Virus record (IMG/VR): IMGVR_UViG_3300029121_000001
From: a virus
Direction: 5' to 3' (one strand)
Length of the DNA: 64,000 nucleotides
The notes beneath the pieces are model-generated. The model was not told where the DNA came from. It searched no databases and saw only the letters and a program-made list of their open reading frames with translations. A program made the position numbers and the translations under genes. This document shows, piece by piece, positions 16,334 to 44,922 of this stretch. Numbering within the stretch: the first letter of the stretch is position 1; each line of letters starts with the position of its first letter.

Positions 16334-16837
16334 TTATTTTAACCACTCAGGGCAAGGATTTAATGCCTTGATACCACCATGAGCGGGAATGAACGTATTC
16401 AGACGTTCACCATTTTCAGACTTAATAGGAATTTCAGTAGTACGGTCTTCAATGTTCTTCCACATTAGTTCAATGTTAGAAGTCTTTCGACCACCAAGAG
16501 GAAGTTTTCTACCAGTCTGAAGATAAGTTCCAGTAAACTCCTTAGACATATTTACCATAGCAGCGGCATCTGCACGGGTAAATTCATAAGCATTAACTAG
16601 TTCTGTTGCTTCCTTTACAGGAATATGAGTGGTAGCAGCTACTACATTGCTAACCACTTTACGAAGTTCACGAGAAGGATAGTATTCATCAACCTTACCA
16701 CCCTTAGCATAAACATCAACAGAATAGTTTGTATCATTCATCATTGCTTGCATGACAGTGATCTCATCTTTTTTAGAAGAAGAACATTGAGTAACACCAT
16801 CTCTGACTTCTTTGATAATCTCATATGCACTTGTCAT
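16334..16837 (-). CDS. hypothetical protein (167 aa) directly upstream of the tape-measure gene; possibly an abundant tail component or chaperone
   Basis: ORF is visibly more G/C-rich in codon choice than its neighbours. The functional guess rests on position only. Confidence 0.75.
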   Translation of the reverse strand: MTSAYEIIKEVRDGVTQCSSSKKDEITVMQAMMNDTNYSVDVYAKGGKVDEYYPSRELRKVVSNVVAATTHIPVKEATELVNAYEFTRADAAAMVNMSKEFTGTYLQTGRKLPLGGRKTSNIELMWKNIEDRTTEIPIKSENGERLNTFIPAHGGIKALNPCPEWLK

Positions 16838-16879
16838 AATCGGTCATCTCTCTTTCTTTTTAATTTTATAGAATTCTTC

Positions 16880-17710
16880 TTATACTCCAAGATTCAAGAC
16901 TCGAACTTGATAAATGTCCAATACAATCTTAGTTAGGGAGATATGAGTTTGCTAGTGGACCGTAGCCCACAAATAACCCTCAGAAACCCATATCAGAAAA
17001 CCGCATCTTAATTTCGGAAATATAGAAGGATGCTTTATCTATACCCCTAGAAGGTCAACTGTCTTTTTCTCATACCTACAGCTCATCTGGATCGATGGTT
17101 TCCTACACGAAATCAAAGTCCTTAAATTTCGGATAATGTGCTAGATGATTTACACAAAACCTACTATTGTTCTTTATATCGTGGCCAGCTCAATAAACTT
17201 ACGGGTGAAGTTTTGCATAAACTAAACGCGCAAGTAGCCTTCCTTAGAACAATCAAGAGTATCTAATGCATATCAATATTCGGCAAACTACCTAAACCAT
17301 AGCTGGTATGGAGTTATTCGTACCAAATATTATTATTCCCCGCCTCGGTAGATACTTTCAAGACTTGACACGCTTTCCCGGTGCCCTTTATGTGGGGCAT
17401 ATAGTAGACCACTATAATTAATAGCCTAAAAAGTTGATCAGACTATCTAGAAAATTAATTAAAGTTTTTATGGCGATACGCGTATCTATTCAATTACGAA
17501 TCCCAATTTGGGATCCTAATAATTGTCACTACGGTCCCCCAGATCCATCTATATGCGTATAAGCGTTAGGATAAAGGTAGTAGACATTATCCCTGCAGAA
17601 TCTTACTGCACCATCATTAGATGTAATCTAATGAATCGAACCTCGCTTTGTAAACCTAAGAAGAAAGAAAAACTTAGATTTACACTTCTTTTGAGCTGTC
17701 CGTCCCTCGA
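16880..17710 (-). ncRNA. candidate large structured non-coding RNA (GOLLD/ROOL-class candidate); strand and ends uncertain
   Basis: About 830 nt with no ORF over 68 codons in any frame. G/C-enriched compared with flanks. Many hairpins and palindromes. Sits directly next to the tRNA pair. A T-loop-like minihelix lies at 16886-16931. Confidence 0.35.
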
Positions 17711-17758
17711 TACACAAAAGAAAAAATAGGAATTAAATACAAGCCGAATATTTAATTC
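17711..17758 (-). terminator. rho-independent terminator after the tRNA pair
   Basis: Stem GGAATTAAATA / TATTTAATTCC (17728-17738 / 17748-17758), followed on the minus strand by TATTTTTTCTTTTGTG. Confidence 0.75.
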
Positions 17759-17762
17759 CTAA

Positions 17763-17839
17763 TGGTGGGCCATGTAGGACTCGAACCTACGACCATCCGG
17801 TTATGAGCCAGAAGCTCTGACCAACTAAGCTAATAGCCC
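17763..17839 (-). tRNA. tRNA-Met (anticodon CAU; elongator-type, or tRNA-Ile2 if lysidine-modified), CCA encoded
   Basis: Minus strand: GGGCTAT TA GCTT AGTTGGTCA GAGC T TCTGG CTCATAA CCGGA TGGTC GTAGG TTCGAGT CCTAC ATGGCCC A CCA. Full cloverleaf folded by hand. G1-C72 argues against an initiator. Confidence 0.9.
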
Positions 17840-17871
17840 TTATAAGTAGAATTAGGGGAGATAATTCTACA

Positions 17872-17953
17872 TGGTGCAGGAAAAGGGACTTGAACCCTCA
17901 CTCCGAAGAACTAGATCCTAAGTCTAGCGTGTCTGCCATTCCACCATTCCTGC
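17872..17953 (-). tRNA. tRNA-Leu (anticodon UAG), class II with long variable arm, CCA encoded
   Basis: Minus strand: GCAGGAATGGTGGAATGGCAGACACGCTAGACTTAGGATCTAGTTCTTCGGAGTGAGGGTTCAAGTCCCTTTTCCTGCACCA. Anticodon stem CTAGA/TCTAG with loop CTTAGGA; T arm GGGTTCAAGTCCC. A 9-bp spacer hairpin (17846-17870) separates it from tRNA-Met. Confidence 0.9.
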
Positions 17954-17974
17954 AAATATAAAAGAGCTAATAAC

Positions 17975-18142
17975 TTAATTAGTCTGATTCGAATCCGTAC
18001 TATTATGTATGTCTTGTAAAGTTTGATCATCTAAAAATGTAATAGCATTTACATTTTTAATCTTGCCTTTAGAAGAAATAAAGTGATTAATTTCTTCAGG
18101 TGTAGATGAACAAAGAATTTTATAAAAATCAGATTTGTCCAT
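17975..18142 (-). CDS. small hypothetical protein (55 aa, MDKSDFYKILCSS..)
   Basis: ATG 4 nt after TAGGAGGAAT. That SD is the 3' arm of a 10-bp hairpin (18147-18188). Below the ORF-track length cut-off. Confidence 0.5.
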   Translation of the reverse strand: MDKSDFYKILCSSTPEEINHFISSKGKIKNVNAITFLDDQTLQDIHNSTDSNQTN

Positions 18143-20136: not shown

Positions 20137-20338
20137 AATAAAGTCCTCCTTATAGACTTCCAATATAATAAAATATTCTTCTAAGAAGGAATATATTTAT
20201 CCTTCTTATCACTTTTATACTATACAAGTGAAATATTTAAATTGTTAAAAAAATAAACCAGTAGAGATTTCTCCCTACTGATATTTTTAATTATACATAC
20301 ACTACTATTATCTCATTAGTATTATTGCGCAATTAATA

Positions 20339-20587
20339 TTAGTGAGATTTAATAACATTAAAGATTCTATCAAACTTAGCAATCTCTTCTTGAGTATAAT
20401 TTTCTCTACCAAGTCTTGCTAATGTATTAGCATTGATAAGAGTATCTCTTTGCATAGAAGCGTTAGCATTAAAATACCCATTATCTCTAGAAATATACAT
20501 AGCATTTCTAGGATTAAATTTCTCCCAAGCAAGACGAATGAAAGTCTGATTCATCGGTACCAAACAATATATAACATCTCCGTCAAA
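20339..20587 (-). CDS. RNA polymerase beta-prime-like subunit (N-terminal-half type), exon 2
   Basis: Frame is open from 20587 and reads FDGDVIYCLVPMNQTFIRLAWE.., colinear with E. coli beta-prime [20 protein letters not shown]. No RBS or start of its own. Confidence 0.75.
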   Translation of the reverse strand, partial: FDGDVIYCLVPMNQTFIRLAWEKFNPRNAMYISRDNGYFNANASMQRDTLINANTLARLGRENYTQEEIAKFDRIFNVIKSH

Positions 20588-21129
20588 CCTAAATCGGACA
20601 CTTTAGGAAAGTTAAAATTGAAATAAGCGAATCTTATGTCATTCATGTACCCTTACACATGAAATATTTAAAATTGCTTAAAACTGCATATTTTAACTTT
20701 TCTTTTAATTTAGCGATCATATCTTTATCCAGTAAAGATTCTGCAATTCTTTATTTATCTGGATATATATCGTTTCGATTTAAATGGATTTATCTGCTGC
20801 CTCAGTACCATACCTATATAATATAGGCTCTACATAATGATCTGTGGGCACACTCATTTCTGAGCTTCGCTGCTGGTTGTCAATTTTATACTATAATAGT
20901 ATTGATCTTTAAGGAACTTAATTTTCATTAAGCTTTTATTGCATCCTAGATCATCCTGTAAATTCTTTCTGACTTTCGTCGGCTTTCACGCTTACCATTG
21001 CTAGTTACGTTGTAGCTTTACAGGCATTATGGTTTTCCAGCAATTAGATATATTAGCGACTCTAAATTACTTTAGAGAAGGGACTTCTGTGGTGATATTA
21101 TATATTATAAATAGCACCACTGCTATTTA
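20588..21129 (-). ncRNA. group I-like intron (542 nt, no ORF) inside the beta-prime NADFDGD motif
   Basis: 5' exon ends ..GCGGAU and the intron ends ..CCGAUUUAGG. An internal GTCC can pair with exon GGAU. R-like CACAGATCATTATG and S-like AAGATATGATCGC can form a P7 helix, GATCAT/ATGATC. Stops in all frames. Confidence 0.6.
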
Positions 21130-22554
21130 ATCCGCAGCCAAAAATTTCAAGATCTGCAGAGGAACTGCTAGAGTATAGGTATTAGTAATTCCAACACAGA
21201 ACATTTGCAGAATAGAGCCATAAGCAAGTGTAGGATTTCGGCCAATTATTACCGGTAATCCACGCATACCTTTATGCTTAAAATCATCAATGATAGATTG
21301 AATAATCGTATTGATCTTTTTATTAGGCTCAATAGTAGCTTTATACCAGATATCATGAGCTTCTGTTGGAGTCATACCATGCATACGGCAAAGAATATTT
21401 TTAATTCTCTGCTCAAGCATAACAGTCAGAGCAACTGCAGGCATTGTAATTTCATCAATACGAAGATTGGGATTTTGAACGATAACACAACGAGAAGAGA
21501 AGTTATACCGTCCACCGAGAAGACATCTAAAATCACCTTTCTTACCAGCAAGGATATTAATTTGCTCTGAATAAATATCCATAAACTTCTTCTGGAGATT
21601 ATAAAGCTGCTGATTCTTGATCTTAGGTTCTCTCTGAATAGCAGTCTTATTCTTGTTGATAGAAGTTGCTAGTTTATTGATCATGGCATACATTGCATTT
21701 GTAGGCTCATATGTCATGTTATTTCCATCGATATCAAAAGGACGAAGTAGAGTAGTAATAACAGGAAGAGACGATGAGAATACAGACTCTCTAGCTTCAT
21801 AAATAGCATCATAATAACTCTTCTTATTAGGATACTTTTTAATATAATAATCCATAATCTCATCGAATCTTTCAGTGAATTCTATCATACCAATTCCAAA
21901 GAAAGGTTCATCCTTAAGCTTAGGATCATCTCTAGACATCGTATTGAGAACAAGTTGAGTATCTGTGACATCAAGAATATTCTCAAGCTTAGTACGCTTA
22001 TTACCTTGAATATAGATGCCCTTACCAAGAATAGATTCAATATAGATATAGAATGTAGGATGAATAAACTTATATGGTTTAGATAATTTAATCCAACCAC
22101 AATACTTGAAGTTATCATCTACATATGTGCACAAGTGCCCACATTGAGGACAGCGAAGACCATAATTAATACGTCCTCTAAGTCCTCCTTCTTTACATCT
22201 ACAACGATACCTATCCATAAAAGGATTAGTATCAGCAAGAGTCTGTCCAAACTTTGGAGAGAAGATACCATCTTCTGCACGAAGATCTTTCTTGATGTTA
22301 CGTCCTGCAGGTTCTACAATAAAGCCATTGCCTTCACGAAGATCATCTTCACAAGCTTTATCATAATTAATGATCTCAAGCTTACCAGAGAATTCATATT
22401 TATCAGAATGAGGATAAGTTTTACTGGTAGACATAAGATCATTAAGATGAGGCTTAAGGAAATTAAATTCCTGTTGATGCTTCATCTGATATTCGATATT
22501 GTAATCGTGGAGTTGTTTATAGTTGCTAGTGTCAACATTATATTTCGTTTCCAT
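21130..22554 (-). CDS. RNA polymerase beta-prime-like subunit (N-terminal-half type), exon 1
   Basis: Zn-ribbon CRCKEGGLRGRINYGLRCPQCGHLC; NPTLAYGSI..LAVPLQILKFLAAD ends at the first Asp of the catalytic loop. TAAGGAGG RBS present. Confidence 0.8.
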
Positions 22555-25787: not shown

Positions 25788-26762
25788 TTAAAAGTAAATA
25801 TCTCTATTAAAAGCCTCTTTAAAACTCGCTTTAACTTTACTGCTATTCACATTACAATAAATCATAGTAGTCTCTAATTTGGCATGCCCGAGAACTTCTT
25901 TAATCTGTTCTACAGGCATTCCTCTATCCATTAGATGAGTTGCACAAGTTCTACGGAATCGGTGAGGATGTACATTCTCTACTCCAGCTCTATCACCAAT
26001 ATCCTTAAGAATTAATTCTGCACCTCTTGGAGTCAATCTATGGCCATTTGAAAGATGTGTGAATAAAGGTTGATCCGGTTGAGCATAACGTTCTTCTAAA
26101 TATTCTTGTAAGTATTTCATACAATTATTACTTAGATAAACAACTCTCTCCTTATGACCTTTACCAAATACTATAACTTCGCCTTCATTGAAGTTGATAT
26201 CTTTTACATTAAGACTAATAACTTCAGCAAGTCTAGTTCCAGTAGAATATAGAAATTCAACAAATGCTTTATCTCTTTTATTAGTACATTCTGCTCTAAG
26301 AGCATCCATCTCAACATTAGAGAAAGCTTTCTTGATTTTCTTTTCACACAATACTCTTTCAATTTTATTAGTAGGATTTTTCTCAATGAATTCTTCATTT
26401 ACAAGAAATTCATAAAAAGAGCTAATAGCTCTAATCTTAGTCTGTAATGTAGCAGCTTGAAGATTTCTTGCTTTAACCATATAGGCAAGATAATCCTTCA
26501 TATCTGCAGTAGTAATGTCTAAATAACTCTTTCCATTATAGTACTTAGCCATTGCTCTAACTTCTGTTACATATCCGGTCAAAGAAGATGGTTTTAGTCC
26601 TACTAAACTTTTCTGTTGTATGAAGCGTTCTATCAACTCTTCATTTGGTAGAGCGGTTCTAGATGTTCTTAGAATTGTATCCAGAACGTTTTTCAATTTA
26701 GCTAGTTGAATTTCATTTAATTCTGGTCCCATCAATTTTAGGATCATCTCTATATTAGTCAT
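25788..26762 (-). CDS. tyrosine recombinase (phage integrase / XerC-XerD-like family)
   Basis: N-terminal SAM-like domain (..IRAISSFYEFLVNEEFIEKNP). Catalytic region: STGTRLAEVISLNVKDI, GKGHKERVVYL, HPHRFRRTCATHLMDRGMPVEQIKEVLGHAKLETTMIYCNV (R..H-x-x-R..H..Y). Start set at the ATG at 26762, after GGAG. Confidence 0.9.
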   Translation of the reverse strand: MTNIEMILKLMGPELNEIQLAKLKNVLDTILRTSRTALPNEELIERFIQQKSLVGLKPSSLTGYVTEVRAMAKYYNGKSYLDITTADMKDYLAYMVKARNLQAATLQTKIRAISSFYEFLVNEEFIEKNPTNKIERVLCEKKIKKAFSNVEMDALRAECTNKRDKAFVEFLYSTGTRLAEVISLNVKDINFNEGEVIVFGKGHKERVVYLSNNCMKYLQEYLEERYAQPDQPLFTHLSNGHRLTPRGAELILKDIGDRAGVENVHPHRFRRTCATHLMDRGMPVEQIKEVLGHAKLETTMIYCNVNSSKVKASFKEAFNRDIYF

Positions 26763-26810
26763 CGCTATATCTCCAATCACAATTAATGTACATTAAGGAG
26801 GACTTTTCAA

Positions 26811-31026: not shown

Positions 31027-31866
31027 TTACAATCCGATCAATGCACTGCGATCAACAACACCAGTTTCTTGAAGAATCATATGCTTATTCGAATCATACT
31101 GACGAATGATCTTAGTGGTCTCATTGATATCATCAACCGTATATTGGATCAGGGTACGTGTATTAGGATTCATAGTAGATTCAGCCAACTGATCAGCATT
31201 CATCTCACCTAATCCCTTAAAACGGTTAACACTGCCAATAGTATTCATTGCTGTAGATACTAGATCATACAAACCAACTTTCTTACCATTAACAATGAAT
31301 CTCATATGATTTTCATTCATCGCTTTCTTAATAGGGTCGATCAGAGGTTTGCAATCCTCAATGAATCTATCATTATAGAAAATCGTTTCAATTCTTCCAT
31401 TAATTAGGCCTTTGATTCTGATAGTATTACCAATCTTAGTAATATTTTCATTCTCCATAAATCTAAATTCAGAAGTAATTCTCTTACGAAGAGTTTCAAA
31501 TTTCTCCTTCTTAATATAGGAAGAAATGACAATTTCCAATAGGATAGGATTAATCTTATATCTTTCAGCAATGGTGGAGAAGTCATAAATATAATCAGAA
31601 TTCTCAATCAAGATTCTAGTAAAGGTAGCAGAATCGATAGGCTTACCATTAAGATCTGTAACAGAATTCTTCTTATAATACTCCTTCTGCATATATCTTA
31701 CAAAGTCAACACGCTCTGCAAAATATTTCATGCGATTCTTCCCCATAGGAATTCCATATAGAGGAGGAACAGCCTTATATACTTTGCCAGCATCGACTAA
31801 GCCGGGGAACATCTTCAGGCACACAAGCAAAAGAAGGTCTGCAATATGTGCACCATCATTATCAGC
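31027..31866 (-). CDS. type IIA topoisomerase GyrB-like subunit, exon 2 (C-terminal Toprim/tail part)
   Basis: Frame is open from about 31866 and reads ADNDGAHIADLLLLVCLKMFPGLVDAGKVYKAVPPLYG, colinear with GyrB DADVDGSHIRTLLLTFF..GHVYIAQPPLYK. No RBS of its own. Confidence 0.75.
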   Translation of the reverse strand, partial: ADNDGAHIADLLLLVCLKMFPGLVDAGKVYKAVPPLYGIPMGKNRMKYFAERVDFVRYMQKEYYKKNSVTDLNGKPIDSATFTRILIENSDYIYDFSTIAERYKINPILLEIVISSYIKKEKFETLRKRITSEFRFMENENITKIGNTIRIKGLINGRIETIFYNDRFIEDCKPLIDPIKKAMNENHMRFIVNGKKVGLYDLVSTAMNTIGSVNRFKGLGEMNADQLAESTMNPNTRTLIQYTVDDINETTKIIRQYDSNKHMILQETGVVDRSALIGL

Positions 31867-32233
31867 TCTATTTCGGTACTCTCACGTTAGTGAGAGAGTA
31901 GACTATATGTTACTATGCTTAGATACTATACTTCTCTAAACCTAGAATGCTCTTTCCAAATACGTGTCAATAGTATCTGTACTTTCCTTCACGGAAATAG
32001 TCGTTACAGGCTTCAATAATATTAATATTATTGATTCCCACGGTATTACCAAGCTATCCATCTGTTCTAATGGACCTTAGGCTTTCTTAGAGAGCTGCTT
32101 CGTCTATGGATATAAGTGTATATCTTCTCTCGACTTCATACACTAGTCTTATTCAGCTCTTACCGTTAGCTAATGATTAAAATCATCAACCCGTGTGACG
32201 AACACGAAAAGCATTTTTGGACGCTGTTAGTTC
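31867..32233 (-). ncRNA. group I-like intron (about 367 nt, no ORF) inside the Toprim DxDxD motif; boundaries +/-1 nt
   Basis: Exon 1 ends ..ATGACGGAT. An internal cGTCC can pair with GGAUg. R-like GTACAGATACTATTG (31982-31968) and S-like ACATATAGTCTAC (31910-31898) have P7 pairing potential. P9-like hairpin CTCTCAC taac GTGAGAG. 3' end ..CCGAAATAGA(G). Confidence 0.55.
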
Positions 32234-33763
32234 ATCCGTCATAAATATTACTTTCGATACCTTAAGTTTCGAGATATCGAAGTGCTTACCATACCCGGCT
32301 CCAAGAATTTGTGTAATTGCCATGACTTCATTATTCGCAGCAATTTTTTGAGGACTCGCTTGAAAAACATTTAGAATCTTACCTCGAATCGGAAAAATAC
32401 CTTGAGTTTCAACATTACGTGCAGATCTTGCAGATCCCAATGCAGAATCACCCTCAACAATAAAGAGTTCAATTTTATTAGGATCTTTTGTAGAAGGTTT
32501 AACATACTTTGCAGGTAGACCAGTAGTAGCACTGGTAGCATACTTTGCAGTAATTTTAACCTTCTCAGTATCTGCCTTGATTCTAGCAAGAGCAATATCT
32601 TTCAGAAACTTACAAACTTTCAGAAGATCTTGAGGTTTTGCTTTAGCCCATCCATCAAGGCCATTCATAATAGTCTCTTTAGCAAAAGGCTTAAAGTCTT
32701 GATTAGATAGAACTTCTTTAGCTTGACCAGTAAATTGAGGCTCCAAATGCCAAGCAGAAATCATAATCTTAAGACCCATCTTAACATCATTGGGAACAAC
32801 TTTAATCTTATTCTTTTCTCGTTCTGTTAGATAAATCTTATTAATATAATTTCCAAACCAAGTAGCAATTCCATCGAGTGTACCAGTAACATGAGTATTC
32901 AATGCACTACTGCTAGTAGGACACATGTTAGCATATGCAGTTACATCCTCACCACCAAGGTCTTGCTGATCAAATGTAAATGCACATTCAAGCTTCATAT
33001 GGCCATTATCATTTTTAATGATAATAGGAGAAACCAACATACTAGCACACTTACCAAGAATATTAGTGGCAATACCATCTTCATTAACCATCTTCTCATG
33101 ATAAGTTTTACCACGCTTATTGATAGAAGTATAGTCAATCGTAGCTCCGATAGGCAATAGAGATAGAGTATCTCTTACCAAAGTATATACCATTGCAGGT
33201 TCTAGAGGTGTTTCACCCATGATACTATGATCAGGAGTAAACTCAGTTCTAGTGCCTTGAAGCTTCTCAGGATTCTTAATAATTTCTTCCTTCTTCAATA
33301 CACCTTTCTTAAACAAAACATGTTTACATGTTCCATCGTATCTATAAGAACATACATCGAAGTATTCAGAAACAGCATTAACTGCTTTTGCACCAATACC
33401 ATTTAAGCCAGCAGAGTAATCTCCTTCCTTCTTTTCTGTAAGATTTTTACCAGTATGACCTTCAGTAAATACAGATATCAATTTTGCGAAAGGCACTCCA
33501 AGGCCATTATCCATAACTACAAATTTGTAATCTCTTTCATCAAAAAGTACGGAAATGAAATTACAAGGTGATTTATCATATAGAAGCTGATCGACTGAAT
33601 TCTGAAAGATCTCACGAAACATTGTCAATAGGCCTATTTCATTTTTACAGCCGAGGTACATGCCGCTTCTTGCTCTCACAGCATTAATGGTACCTTCGAT
33701 ATGTGTAATATCCTTGTCATAGGTATCGACATTCTTCATTTGCTCAGCAGTAAGTTTTGCCAT
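32234..33763 (-). CDS. type IIA topoisomerase GyrB-like subunit, exon 1 (GHKL ATPase, transducer, first half of Toprim)
   Basis: REIFQNSVDQ, VMDNGLGVP, GLNGIGAKAVNAVS (ATPase boxes). FIVEGDSALGSARSARNVETQGIFPIRGKILNV (Toprim). The ORF runs 15 junk codons past ..KVIFMTD to a stop at 32186. Confidence 0.85.
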
Positions 33764-43760: not shown

Positions 43761-43764
43761 ATCA

Positions 43765-44922
43765 TCACTCTTTCTTTAAAATTTCTTCTAATTCTTCTAC
43801 TGTAAGAAATTTTTCATCTTGCTTTAGATAGTTAACCCACATAACAAATTTTTGTTCGTCTGTAAGTCTCGGATCTAACAAAAATGCCACTTTTTCATTA
43901 TCTTCTTTGATTTGTTGCTCTGCTTGTCTAGCAATCTCAATCTCTTGAGAATAAAAATCAAGAGTAACAGATTCATCTCCTCTAAATCCATCATTGATAG
44001 CCATTTTATTGGAACCAATAATAGGCTTAGTAAACTTAACTTTGATAAAGTCTATTCCTTGAGTTTGCTTAAGATTCCTAATGTAGTTAATCGTTTCTAT
44101 TGGATCATTTTTGATAATATCATCAAGATAAATAGTCTTATATATATCAGAGATAATCTCTTGATAATCAAGATAATAATATCTCGTATTGATATTATAG
44201 GTCATCAAGATGAAACCTTTTTTATGATCATCATCGAATCTCCATCTATATGGAGATCCGCAATAATAGAAATGATCATCAAATACACCAGGTTTATGAA
44301 CATGGCCTGAAATAATAGGACCTTTACAATTCAAAAAATCTTCAATATGAAAAAGTCTTCCGTTACCAACATTATCTCCAAATACTGCTCCATGAATAGT
44401 ACCATGCATAATGCATAGATCATAAAATCCAGATCCAAAAAGCATATGCTGATAATATTCTTCGGGAATTCCATATAATTCAGGAATGCAAAGAATTCGA
44501 GCATTTTTAACCATTTCAAATCTAATATTAGTCACTATTCTTACATCAACATCTTTTCTTTGCATATAGTGATAATAGATTTTTATTTGGTTAGCATCGT
44601 GTGAAAGAGTTCCTTGTAAAAGAATTAAAGTAGCATTATGAGATTTACAAATTTCGACCAATCGTCCAATAAACATTGAAGCATATAAAGTTGCATCAGA
44701 TGATGTTTGTACTTTATGATCAAATAAATCTCCATTAACACATACAAGATCTAATCTAGGCATAGCTTCGATCTTTTGAAGAAATTGATCTTCCAAGAAA
44801 TTGTATTGTTTTAATGGATCCATTACAGGAAAATGTAAATCTGAAATATGAGCAGTGATTAGAGTTCCTTTATCGATTTCTGCTTTTAAGTTATATTGAG
44901 CAACTTCTTCTTCAATAGTCAT
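43765..44922 (-). CDS. Mre11/SbcD (T4 gp47-like) calcineurin-fold nuclease
   Basis: Phosphoesterase motifs in order: HISDLHF, VNGDLFDH, LLQGTLSHD, IMHGTIHG, ISGHVHKPG. Confidence 0.7.
   Translation of the reverse strand: MTIEEEVAQYNLKAEIDKGTLITAHISDLHFPVMDPLKQYNFLEDQFLQKIEAMPRLDLVCVNGDLFDHKVQTSSDATLYASMFIGRLVEICKSHNATLILLQGTLSHDANQIKIYYHYMQRKDVDVRIVTNIRFEMVKNARILCIPELYGIPEEYYQHMLFGSGFYDLCIMHGTIHGAVFGDNVGNGRLFHIEDFLNCKGPIISGHVHKPGVFDDHFYYCGSPYRWRFDDDHKKGFILMTYNINTRYYYLDYQEIISDIYKTIYLDDIIKNDPIETINYIRNLKQTQGIDFIKVKFTKPIIGSNKMAINDGFRGDESVTLDFYSQEIEIARQAEQQIKEDNEKVAFLLDPRLTDEQKFVMWVNYLKQDEKFLTVEELEEILKKE

Follow-up and report, generated by a model that had tools for sequence, protein, structure and literature searches.

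The window analyzed here, a 64,000-nucleotide (nt) stretch of viral DNA (IMG/VR virus record IMGVR_UViG_3300029121_000001), encodes on its minus strand a structured RNA of ~760 nt, which lies between a pair of phage tRNA genes and a gene for a 167-amino-acid (aa) protein. The element is built of a 5′ head of the RAGATH-36 type, a long body and a tRNA-like minihelix at the 3′ end. It is a new, greatly expanded RAGATH-36-type variant, and it adds an example to the rare class of large ornate phage RNAs that lie near tRNAs. To our knowledge, large (>500 nt) non-ribosomal structured RNAs of bacteria and phages are few (OLE, GOLLD, ROOL and a handful more), each of them structurally remarkable. We favor the reading, with a probability of roughly 0.6, that head, body and minihelix form a stable structured non-coding RNA that is freed by tRNA-processing enzymes and acts in trans.

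Conservation and covariation of a minus-strand RNA

The element occupies a gap in which no open reading frame (ORF) is longer than 68 aa. All genes and both tRNAs around this gap are on the minus strand, in the following order:

17953-17872, minus: tRNA-Leu (anticodon UAG), called by ARAGORN, 58.5 bits with the Rfam tRNA model; conserved in relatives (not in L004)
17839-17763, minus: tRNA-Met (anticodon CAU), directly upstream of the element, called by ARAGORN, 66.9 bits with the Rfam tRNA model
17762-16838, minus: the gap of 925 nt
16837-16334, minus: ORF of the 167-aa protein, followed by the ORF of a 3164-aa protein

Homologues were collected by three routes. A search with the 167-aa protein gave three IMG/VR contigs in which the gap recurs; its relatives at 87-98% identity in ENA, Logan and JGI assemblies all carried the gap; and a metagenome scan with an invariant body motif gained further human-gut contigs. 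IMG/VR scans with two body motifs returned nothing beyond the three contigs already found. The resulting 20 distinct full-length copies, all in human-gut phage contigs, form three clades, with identities of ~62% between A and B/C, ~82% between B and C and 89-99% within clades. The tRNA-Met is upstream in every copy, at a distance of 113-128 nt from the head.

Conservation among these copies follows a mosaic of invariant blocks and variable hairpins. For a 10-sequence subset, RNAalifold gave -103 kcal/mol in the sense direction versus -40 ± 5 for column-shuffled alignments (z = -12.0), and -70 in the antisense direction (z = -6.3). A model of 137 pairs in 25 helices was then evaluated on a structure-blind MAFFT alignment (A4; 20 sequences, 836 columns). 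It had 98.4% of its cells paired, and compensatory double changes were found at 45 pairs, compared with 4-9 in controls whose 3′ partners had been slid by 1-3 columns. The covariation score was 0.30 versus 0.05-0.07 in the slid controls, and none of 500 shuffles attained the observed pairing or covariation values. Many G-U pairs are invariant (they would be C-A on the opposite strand), and these pairs, the RAGATH-36 match and the T-arm set the orientation as minus. Searching for pseudoknots by covariation yielded one 5-bp candidate (A4 columns 135-139 / 427-431) that is not statistically secure. Cumulatively, the alignments establish the existence, strand, extent (17648 to 16887), secondary structure and modularity of a minus-strand RNA of ~760 nt.

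The original prediction, made from the letters of the window, had proposed a large structured RNA beside the tRNA pair, perhaps of a new class, and had suggested covariation among homologues as a check; the compensatory changes in 45 of the 137 pairs across 20 homologues bear this out. The strand, the RAGATH-36-type head and the tRNA-like 3′ end had gone unseen. It had also noted correctly that no ORF exceeds 68 codons, the longest one in the gap being 68 aa, on the plus strand. The enrichment in G/C that it described (0.36-0.39 in the gap) holds against the right flank (0.22-0.30) and not against the coding left flank, which has an equal content (0.35-0.39). A single-sequence fold of the gap gives a modest z-score of about -3 on both strands.

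Stop-codon recoding and a hidden ORF were considered and rejected. Each of the six frames of the gap contains 18-24 stop codons of all three kinds, which excludes recoding. The 20 homologues share no ORF, their stop-free runs being short and not kept; their variable columns show no period of three bases (130/122/135), and the length of most indels is not divisible by three.

The close relatives come from human-gut metagenomes, as contigs of 190-277 kb, and include the NCBI record 'MAG TPA: Caudoviricetes sp.', and a protein identical to the 167-aa neighbor is present on 430 contigs. Neither blastn nor tblastn found a match in GenBank records of isolated phages, the genomes of 185k bacterial and archaeal species lack the body motif, and no second copy of the element or template/variable repeat of the diversity-generating-retroelement type was found within the window. 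A literature search, whose coverage did not extend to the supplement of the original RAGATH-36 paper, returned no paper naming RAGATH-36 and no description of this ~760-nt RNA.

More distant relatives (61-77% identity in the 167-aa protein) were rejected as sources of further copies, as the body is missing from them. At ≤68% identity, small ORFs occupy the position of the gap, and in L004 (42%) neither the element nor the tRNAs can be traced. An intermediate is provided by contig L131 (77%), which has tRNA-Leu, tRNA-Met, two leader hairpins and the head without the body. Its head ends in AACGCUUAG, which is directly joined to GAGUAU..AAUAAGAA..AAGAGAAAGAGAGA, the ribosome-binding site and the ATG, so that the head sits 47 nt before the same 167-aa gene. 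This short form indicates that ~675 nt (about 17560 to about 16887) were gained or lost as a discrete unit, and the indel boundaries are placed accordingly.

The window belongs to a low-GC jumbo phage encoding a split multisubunit RNA polymerase, gyrase/topoisomerase subunits and helicases. Its 3164-aa virion protein possesses Peptidase_C39_2, CHAP and Phage_lysozyme2 domains, and the 167-aa protein has no family in PHROGs or Pfam. A tyrosine recombinase (Phage_integrase and SAM-like N-terminal domains) is encoded at 25788-26780 on the minus strand of this otherwise lytic jumbo-phage-like genome.

Head, body and tRNA-like 3′ end

The head folds into a four-way junction composed of the following parts:

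17560-17648, minus: 5′ head, from a partial match to Rfam RF03104 and the minimum-free-energy (MFE) fold
17648-17644 / 17565-17561, minus: P1 (AAGCG/CGCUU), followed by J1/2 AGGUUCGAUUC
17634-17628 / 17620-17614, minus: P2, followed by GAUGG
17610-17606 / 17598-17594, minus: P3, with loop UAAGAUU
17593-17585 / 17576-17568, minus: P4, with 3 covarying pairs, followed by UAACGCUUA

RAGATH-36 (RF03104) is a candidate phage small RNA (Weinberg et al. 2017, PMC5737381). Rfam searches were run at gathering thresholds over the whole window and, with lax filters, at E ≤ 10 over both strands of 16700-18000 (1.3 kb). The latter matched RF03104 at 17613-17549 (minus) with 29.6 bits and an E-value of 8.7e-4; this is below the gathering score of 70 bits, and nothing in the head passed the gathering thresholds. 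Its counterparts in L131 and L093 score 40.9 and 49.2 bits, respectively. Only the 5′ half of the model (positions 1 to ~56) is matched, with the conserved residues of all its features present: UGG, the 5-bp hairpin with loop UAcGAUU, the variable hairpin and AACGCUUA/AACGCUUAG. The 3′ domains of the family, an irregular stem of 56 positions and a hairpin of 23 positions, are shrunk to 5 nt and 2 nt, whereas L062 is a full match.

Upstream of the first position of the Rfam model, an invariant AAGCGAGGUUCRAU and a covarying P2 are present in all RAGATH-36 and RAGATH-36-like copies recovered. The AAGCG of this extension can pair with the CGCUU of AACGCUUAG and thereby close the four-way junction, and MFE folding of the window and L131 heads gives exactly that junction. 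Two T-loop-like pentads are found in the head, UUCGA in J1/2 and UACGA/UAAGA in the P3 loop. The Rfam model itself appears to be 5′-truncated, as seen in copies L062, L092, L045, L118, L024, L068, L034 and the window head. Several canonical RAGATH-36 copies also have in common an extra downstream hairpin with loop GAAAUGCUG.

The body of ~620 nt (17556-16935) is found only in this phage lineage and comprises at least 18 helices in two domains, each closed by a long-range helix:

17397-17556, minus: domain 1, closing helix 17556-17551 / 17402-17397; 15 of the 26 pairs in helices 5-9 are compensatory
17516-17499, minus: hairpin of domain 1 that covaries in all clades
17465-17455 / 17421-17411 and 17451-17446 / 17431-17425, minus: long arm of domain 1, with all 6 pairs of its apical stem covarying
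17342-17385, minus: two adjacent hairpins, helices 10 and 11 of the model
16935-17341, minus: domain 2, long-range closing helix GGGGA/UCCCU (17341-17337 / 16939-16935) with helices 13-22 inside
17235-17229 / 17203-17197, 17033-17029 / 17007-17003 and 16994-16982 / 16953-16940, minus: helices of domain 2
17161-17152 / 17141-17131, minus: helix of domain 2 with invariant loop AAAUCAUCUA

The long arm is capped by the loop UCUGAUCAA (17442-17434), which contains the palindrome UGAUCA and is invariant in 20/20 copies. Between the domains, the hairpin of helix 10 (17385-17380 / 17373-17367) covaries at 4 of 6 pairs and is 100% paired, and that of helix 11 (17364-17359 / 17347-17342) covaries at 1 of 6 pairs, is 98% paired and carries an invariant 11-nt loop, AAAGUAUCUAC (17358-17348). 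The segment AGUAUCUA of this loop perfectly complements the invariant UAGAUACU (about 17265-17258) over 8 bp, a candidate tertiary contact that is not statistically secure. Covarying pairs further amount to 2/5 in helix 12, 5/7 in helix 17, 5/8 in helix 19 and 3/11 in helix 22, which is 100% paired. A peripheral hairpin at 16972-16954 differs in sequence from clade to clade; in L164 (1901-2643; A4 columns about 738-766) it is cleanly deleted and the flanking helices are intact. Such variability and loss are typical of structured RNAs.

The local signals of the original prediction, all of which had been placed one base too low, can be reassigned on this model. Its 9-bp hairpin is genuine, lies at 17614-17634 and corresponds to P2 of the head, and ATCCCAATTTGGGAT (17500-17514) is a real hairpin with covariation in all clades. 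By contrast, two signals are seen only in clade A and are not conserved in clades B and C: the palindrome GATACGCGTATC (17475-17486) and the AATTTCGGA repeat. A 9-nt long-range complement, one partner of which lies in the peripheral hairpin missing from L164, is not kept in other clades and is either chance or specific to one clade.

The 3′ end of the element and the segment that follows it are made up as below:

16887-16932, minus: tRNA-like minihelix of 46 nt, invariant in 20/20 copies save consistent changes
16932-16926 / 16893-16887, minus: acceptor-like 7-bp stem (CUAAGAU/AUCUUGG)
16925-16923 / 16917-16915, minus: 3-bp mini-hairpin
16910-16894, minus: T-arm UCAAG-UUCGAGU-CUUGA, whose 7-nt loop is the same as that of the adjacent tRNA-Met
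16838-16886, minus: linker and ribosome-binding region of the 167-aa gene, with the invariant purine tract AAAAAGAAAGAGAGAUGA, ahead of its ATG

The few substitutions in the minihelix keep the pairing: in the acceptor stem A-U becomes G-U, and in the mini-hairpin U-A becomes C-G. Substrates of RNase P and RNase Z have an acceptor stem stacked on a T-arm, and features of this type are present here: a 7-bp acceptor stem stacked on a 5-bp T-stem, a UUCRANN loop and a G-C closing pair. Downstream of RAGATH-36 heads, a strict T-arm pattern matched real tRNAs and this site only, and the T-arm part of the covariance model built for the element (R1) picks up genuine tRNA T-arms at other loci. As a tRNA, the minihelix was called as a full cloverleaf by neither ARAGORN nor the tRNA covariance model, which gave the two annotated tRNAs only. 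Elsewhere in the window, a 37-nt stretch at 43762-43798 is 81% identical to 16844-16880, in the purine-rich ribosome-binding/linker region of the 167-aa gene; the two may share a translation-initiation or regulatory signal.

Between tRNA-Met and the head, a leader of 123 nt (fold z = -5.2) contains three parts:

17717-17762, minus: A/U-rich 14-bp hairpin with a U-tract, from the MFE fold, with AU-to-GC compensatory changes
17704-17716, minus: box UGUGUAUCGAGGG, conserved throughout the three clades, with a similar form in L131
17649-17684, minus: hairpin P0, a 12-bp stem with the C/U-rich loop UUUUUCUUUCUU (about 17672-17661), from the MFE fold

The first hairpin, in which three pairs (5/42, 6/41 and 11/36) change from AU to GC across clades, resembles a terminator or a processing hairpin placed after tRNA-Met; it was not called by a terminator scan, which demands at least 3 G-C pairs. 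The box UGUGUAUCGAGGG is possibly the transcript start or a part of the RNA. The conserved UGUGUAU box was considered as a phage promoter motif, and the idea was dropped because the box is not repeated in the window beyond chance. In the RNA core, relative L001 shares 90% identity with the window, but its first ~120 nt after tRNA-Met match clades B and C rather than the window; window 17649-17762 and L001 3068-3190, which hold the terminator-like hairpin and P0, form a recombination mosaic.

Proposed release and action of the RNA, and competing explanations

The genomic context of RAGATH-36 heads bears on how such an RNA might be made. The head is present in more than 25 distinct viral contexts, and nhmmer picked it up in ~17 other large-phage contigs; from bacteria and archaea it is almost absent (2 contigs of metagenome-assembled genomes among 185k species). 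RAGATH-36 loci lie in or beside tRNA arrays, which reach at least 20 tRNAs in related large phages, with other RAGATH motifs and the pistol ribozyme nearby. In about half of the distinct contexts, a tRNA is found on the same strand within 160-830 nt downstream.

A second group of gut phages (group II: L093, 2405-3290; L090, L028, L081, L108, L035) has the order tRNA-Leu or tRNA-Gly, ~100 nt, a near-complete RAGATH-36, ~700 nt and tRNA-Glu. The ~700-nt stretch has no sense-strand ORF of 70 aa or more, is GC-richer, contains UUCG hairpins and gives an alifold z of -6.2. It has no Rfam match, and neither nhmmer --max nor a covariance model of the 3′ third, run unfiltered, detected homology between this body and ours. 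At least two different giant bodies therefore follow the RAGATH-36 head, and on its 3′ side the RNA abuts a tRNA or a tRNA-like minihelix.

In the reading that we favor, the element would be transcribed together with, or just after, the two phage tRNAs, and tRNA-maturation enzymes would free it from the downstream virion-protein mRNA, with RNase P cutting on the 5′ side of the minihelix and RNase Z or exonucleases acting on its 3′ side. We infer transcription, processing and action in trans; enzymatic release is proposed because of the tRNA context rule and the substrate requirements of RNase P and RNase Z, and it parallels the RAGATH-36 RNAs that abut a real tRNA. By analogy with what has been proposed for GOLLD and ROOL, the released RNA might serve in trans as a scaffold, made of RNA or ribonucleoprotein, or as a tRNA-related decoy. 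More speculatively, the invariant palindromic loop hints at self-association, and the T-loop-rich head at a tRNA-related interaction. End formation at the tRNA-like minihelix is a concrete, testable mechanism. With strong covariation support and a highly prevalent human-gut jumbo phage as the carrier, the element ties the RAGATH-36 motif to giant RNAs and to tRNA processing. In at least two phage groups, the RNA is much longer than the portion covered by the Rfam RAGATH-36 model, which offers a handle for finding more such RNAs.

Several points weigh against this reading. The compensatory changes come from only three clades and so from few independent events, and P1 of the head and most of the minihelix are invariant and so gain no support from covariation. 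The 5′ and 3′ ends are putative, being placed by conservation only. At the 3′ end, a single-sequence MFE favors an alternative inner fold, and the minihelix has no encoded CCA and begins with C. The terminator-like hairpin between the tRNAs and the element makes co-transcription with the tRNAs uncertain. Finally, the element is always directly upstream of the 167-aa gene, an arrangement that fits a cis-acting leader equally well.

Such a leader, a long structured cis-acting 5′ region controlling translation or transcript stability in the operon of the 167-aa protein and the 3164-aa lysin-like protein, is in our view an unlikely explanation and still the one to be weighed most carefully. It would account for the constant position immediately before the 167-aa gene on the same strand, which is seen even for the bodiless head of L131, and for the invariance of the purine tract. 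In P0, the stem of the window copy is wholly unlike those of L001-L003, clade C and L131, and the pyrimidine-rich loop is retained in spite of this complete change. RNAalifold pairs the loop segment UCUUUCUU with AAGAAAGA, part of the purine tract that precedes the 167-aa gene, and a possible variant has the C/U-rich loop masking the purine-rich ribosome-binding tract while the body brings both together. This complementarity, however, is of low complexity (polypyrimidine with polypurine), is weak evidence and falls to 5 bp in L131. In other phages the same head lies within tRNA arrays and is followed by tRNAs rather than protein genes, and L131-L136 and L004 have the same operon without the body or without the whole element. 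Moreover, ~620 nt of ornate conserved structure far exceed the needs of known bacterial leaders, and no riboswitch or T-box was matched.

The favored reading of a released RNA acting in trans can be extended to a wider scheme, which we offer tentatively as possible but rather doubtful. RAGATH-36 might be no small RNA of its own but the conserved 5′ head of a hitherto unrecognized phage RNA superfamily in tRNA regions, with interchangeable lineage-specific giant bodies (620-700 nt, at least two of them unrelated) and a 3′ end set by RNase P at a tRNA or a vestigial minihelix. The head, with its two T-loop-like pentads and conserved UGG, could then mimic or dock to the tRNA elbow, and the body may self-assemble via its invariant UGAUCA loop, as the GOLLD and ROOL cages do, or sequester tRNA-binding host factors.

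The ~675 nt between AACGCUUA and GAGUAU might also be a mobile or self-splicing element, an atypical intron in a short RAGATH-36-type RNA gene, splicing of which would restore an L131-like form. We consider this very improbable. Presence versus absence relative to L131 is clean with conserved flanks, the last base of the insert is G, and the same phage has at least one ORF-less group I-like intron (in gyrB) and possibly another after an RNA polymerase gene. Nevertheless, no group I or group II match was obtained at E ≤ 10, while other diverged introns of this genome were detected at E-values of 0.03 and 1.5, so the test has power here. The upstream flank ends in A instead of the usual U, clades B and C leave the position of the junction ambiguous, an internal guide pairing is not evident, and no copy exists elsewhere in the window or in the other contigs. 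As the insert occupies the place of the canonical RAGATH-36 3′ domains, replacement or expansion of a domain fits better than insertion.

Functionless debris of a decayed tRNA array or protein gene is hardly tenable. The T-loop-like fragments (GGUUCGAUUC; UCAAG-UUCGAGU-CUUGA) and the large tRNA arrays at RAGATH-36 loci of related phages could be taken to favor it, but invariant blocks persist across clades only 62% identical, 45 pairs are compensatory, a whole hairpin is cleanly lost in L164 and no further tRNA or pseudo-tRNA was matched at E ≤ 10. A decayed protein gene, which the original prediction had named among the outcomes that would overturn it, left neither ORF remnant nor codon periodicity in the 20 homologues.

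Least credible is membership in GOLLD or ROOL, which the original prediction had raised. The size of ~0.76 kb, the phage origin, the ornate structure and the position directly downstream of tRNA-Met, like that of GOLLD env-38 (PMC12286853), are reminiscent of these RNAs, but neither RF01998 nor RF03087 was matched, be it at E ≤ 10 with permissive filters over the 1.3 kb or in the whole window at gathering thresholds, and the head belongs to another family, RAGATH-36. RNase P RNA and tmRNA likewise had no match at E ≤ 10, and beyond the tRNAs and the partial RAGATH-36 that search gave a few chance-level hits only.

Two further ORF-poor regions were noted in the window. The gyrB gene is split by a 355-nt ORF-free gap (31831-32185, minus) between ORFs 32186-33763 and 31027-31830, one with HATPase, DNA_gyraseB and part of Toprim and the other with DNA_gyraseB_C. 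A full-length, sub-threshold group I intron match (32194-31879, 18.1 bits, E = 0.033) suggests that this gap is probably an ORF-less self-splicing intron. The second region, 971 nt at 20156-21126 (minus), lies just downstream of an RNA polymerase beta′ fragment gene (21127-22554). Its single-sequence fold (z = -6.2) is stronger than that of the main element, and it contains a weak full-length group I intron hit (21092-20714, 13.7 bits, E = 1.5); it could be an intron of the RNA polymerase gene or another structured RNA.

Relation to known large RNAs and tRNA-like modules

GOLLD and ROOL are large RNAs that phages carry in the neighborhood of tRNA islands, and GOLLD env-38 is found just downstream of tRNA-Met (PMC12286853). 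ROOL, carried by phages and prophages of bacteria from gut and rumen, is often close to a tRNA island and has no known protein partner (PMC12286853). The present element resembles GOLLD (~0.8 kb) in its size of ~760 nt, its ornate structure, its phage origin and its place beside tRNA genes, and it likewise combines a more conserved part with variable peripheral hairpins. It differs from GOLLD in its conserved sequences and in having no match to the covariance model of the conserved 3′ region (RF01998). With ROOL it shares the character of a large structured RNA of gut phages near tRNAs, but not a covariance-model match (RF03087). ROOL is ~580 nt long and has a different, pseudoknotted architecture. 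GOLLD and ROOL form RNA-only homo-oligomeric cages; for our element, the sole hint of such assembly is the invariant palindromic loop UGAUCA.

Transfer RNA-like 3′ modules that set RNA ends via RNase P are familiar from mammalian MALAT1/mascRNA and from the tRNA punctuation of mitochondrial transcripts. As in MALAT1/mascRNA, an acceptor stem on a T-arm stands at the 3′ end of a long non-coding RNA, just before the next functional unit. The context here, by contrast, is that of a bacterial phage, the 46-nt minihelix has no D and anticodon arms, and cleavage is predicted.

The group II phages offer the closest parallel in layout: a tRNA, ~100 nt, a RAGATH-36 head, ~700 nt of ORF-free structured RNA and a tRNA or tRNA-like end. 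Their body is unrelated to ours, however, the canonical RAGATH-36 3′ domains are kept, and the end is a genuine tRNA-Glu. Compared with RAGATH-36 itself, the element has the 5′ half, the invariant upstream extension and the setting of a large phage adjoining tRNA genes in common. In place of the 56-nt and 23-nt 3′ domains, it carries ~620 nt of unrelated structured RNA and a tRNA-like minihelix, and its ~760 nt amount to roughly five times the length of the family.

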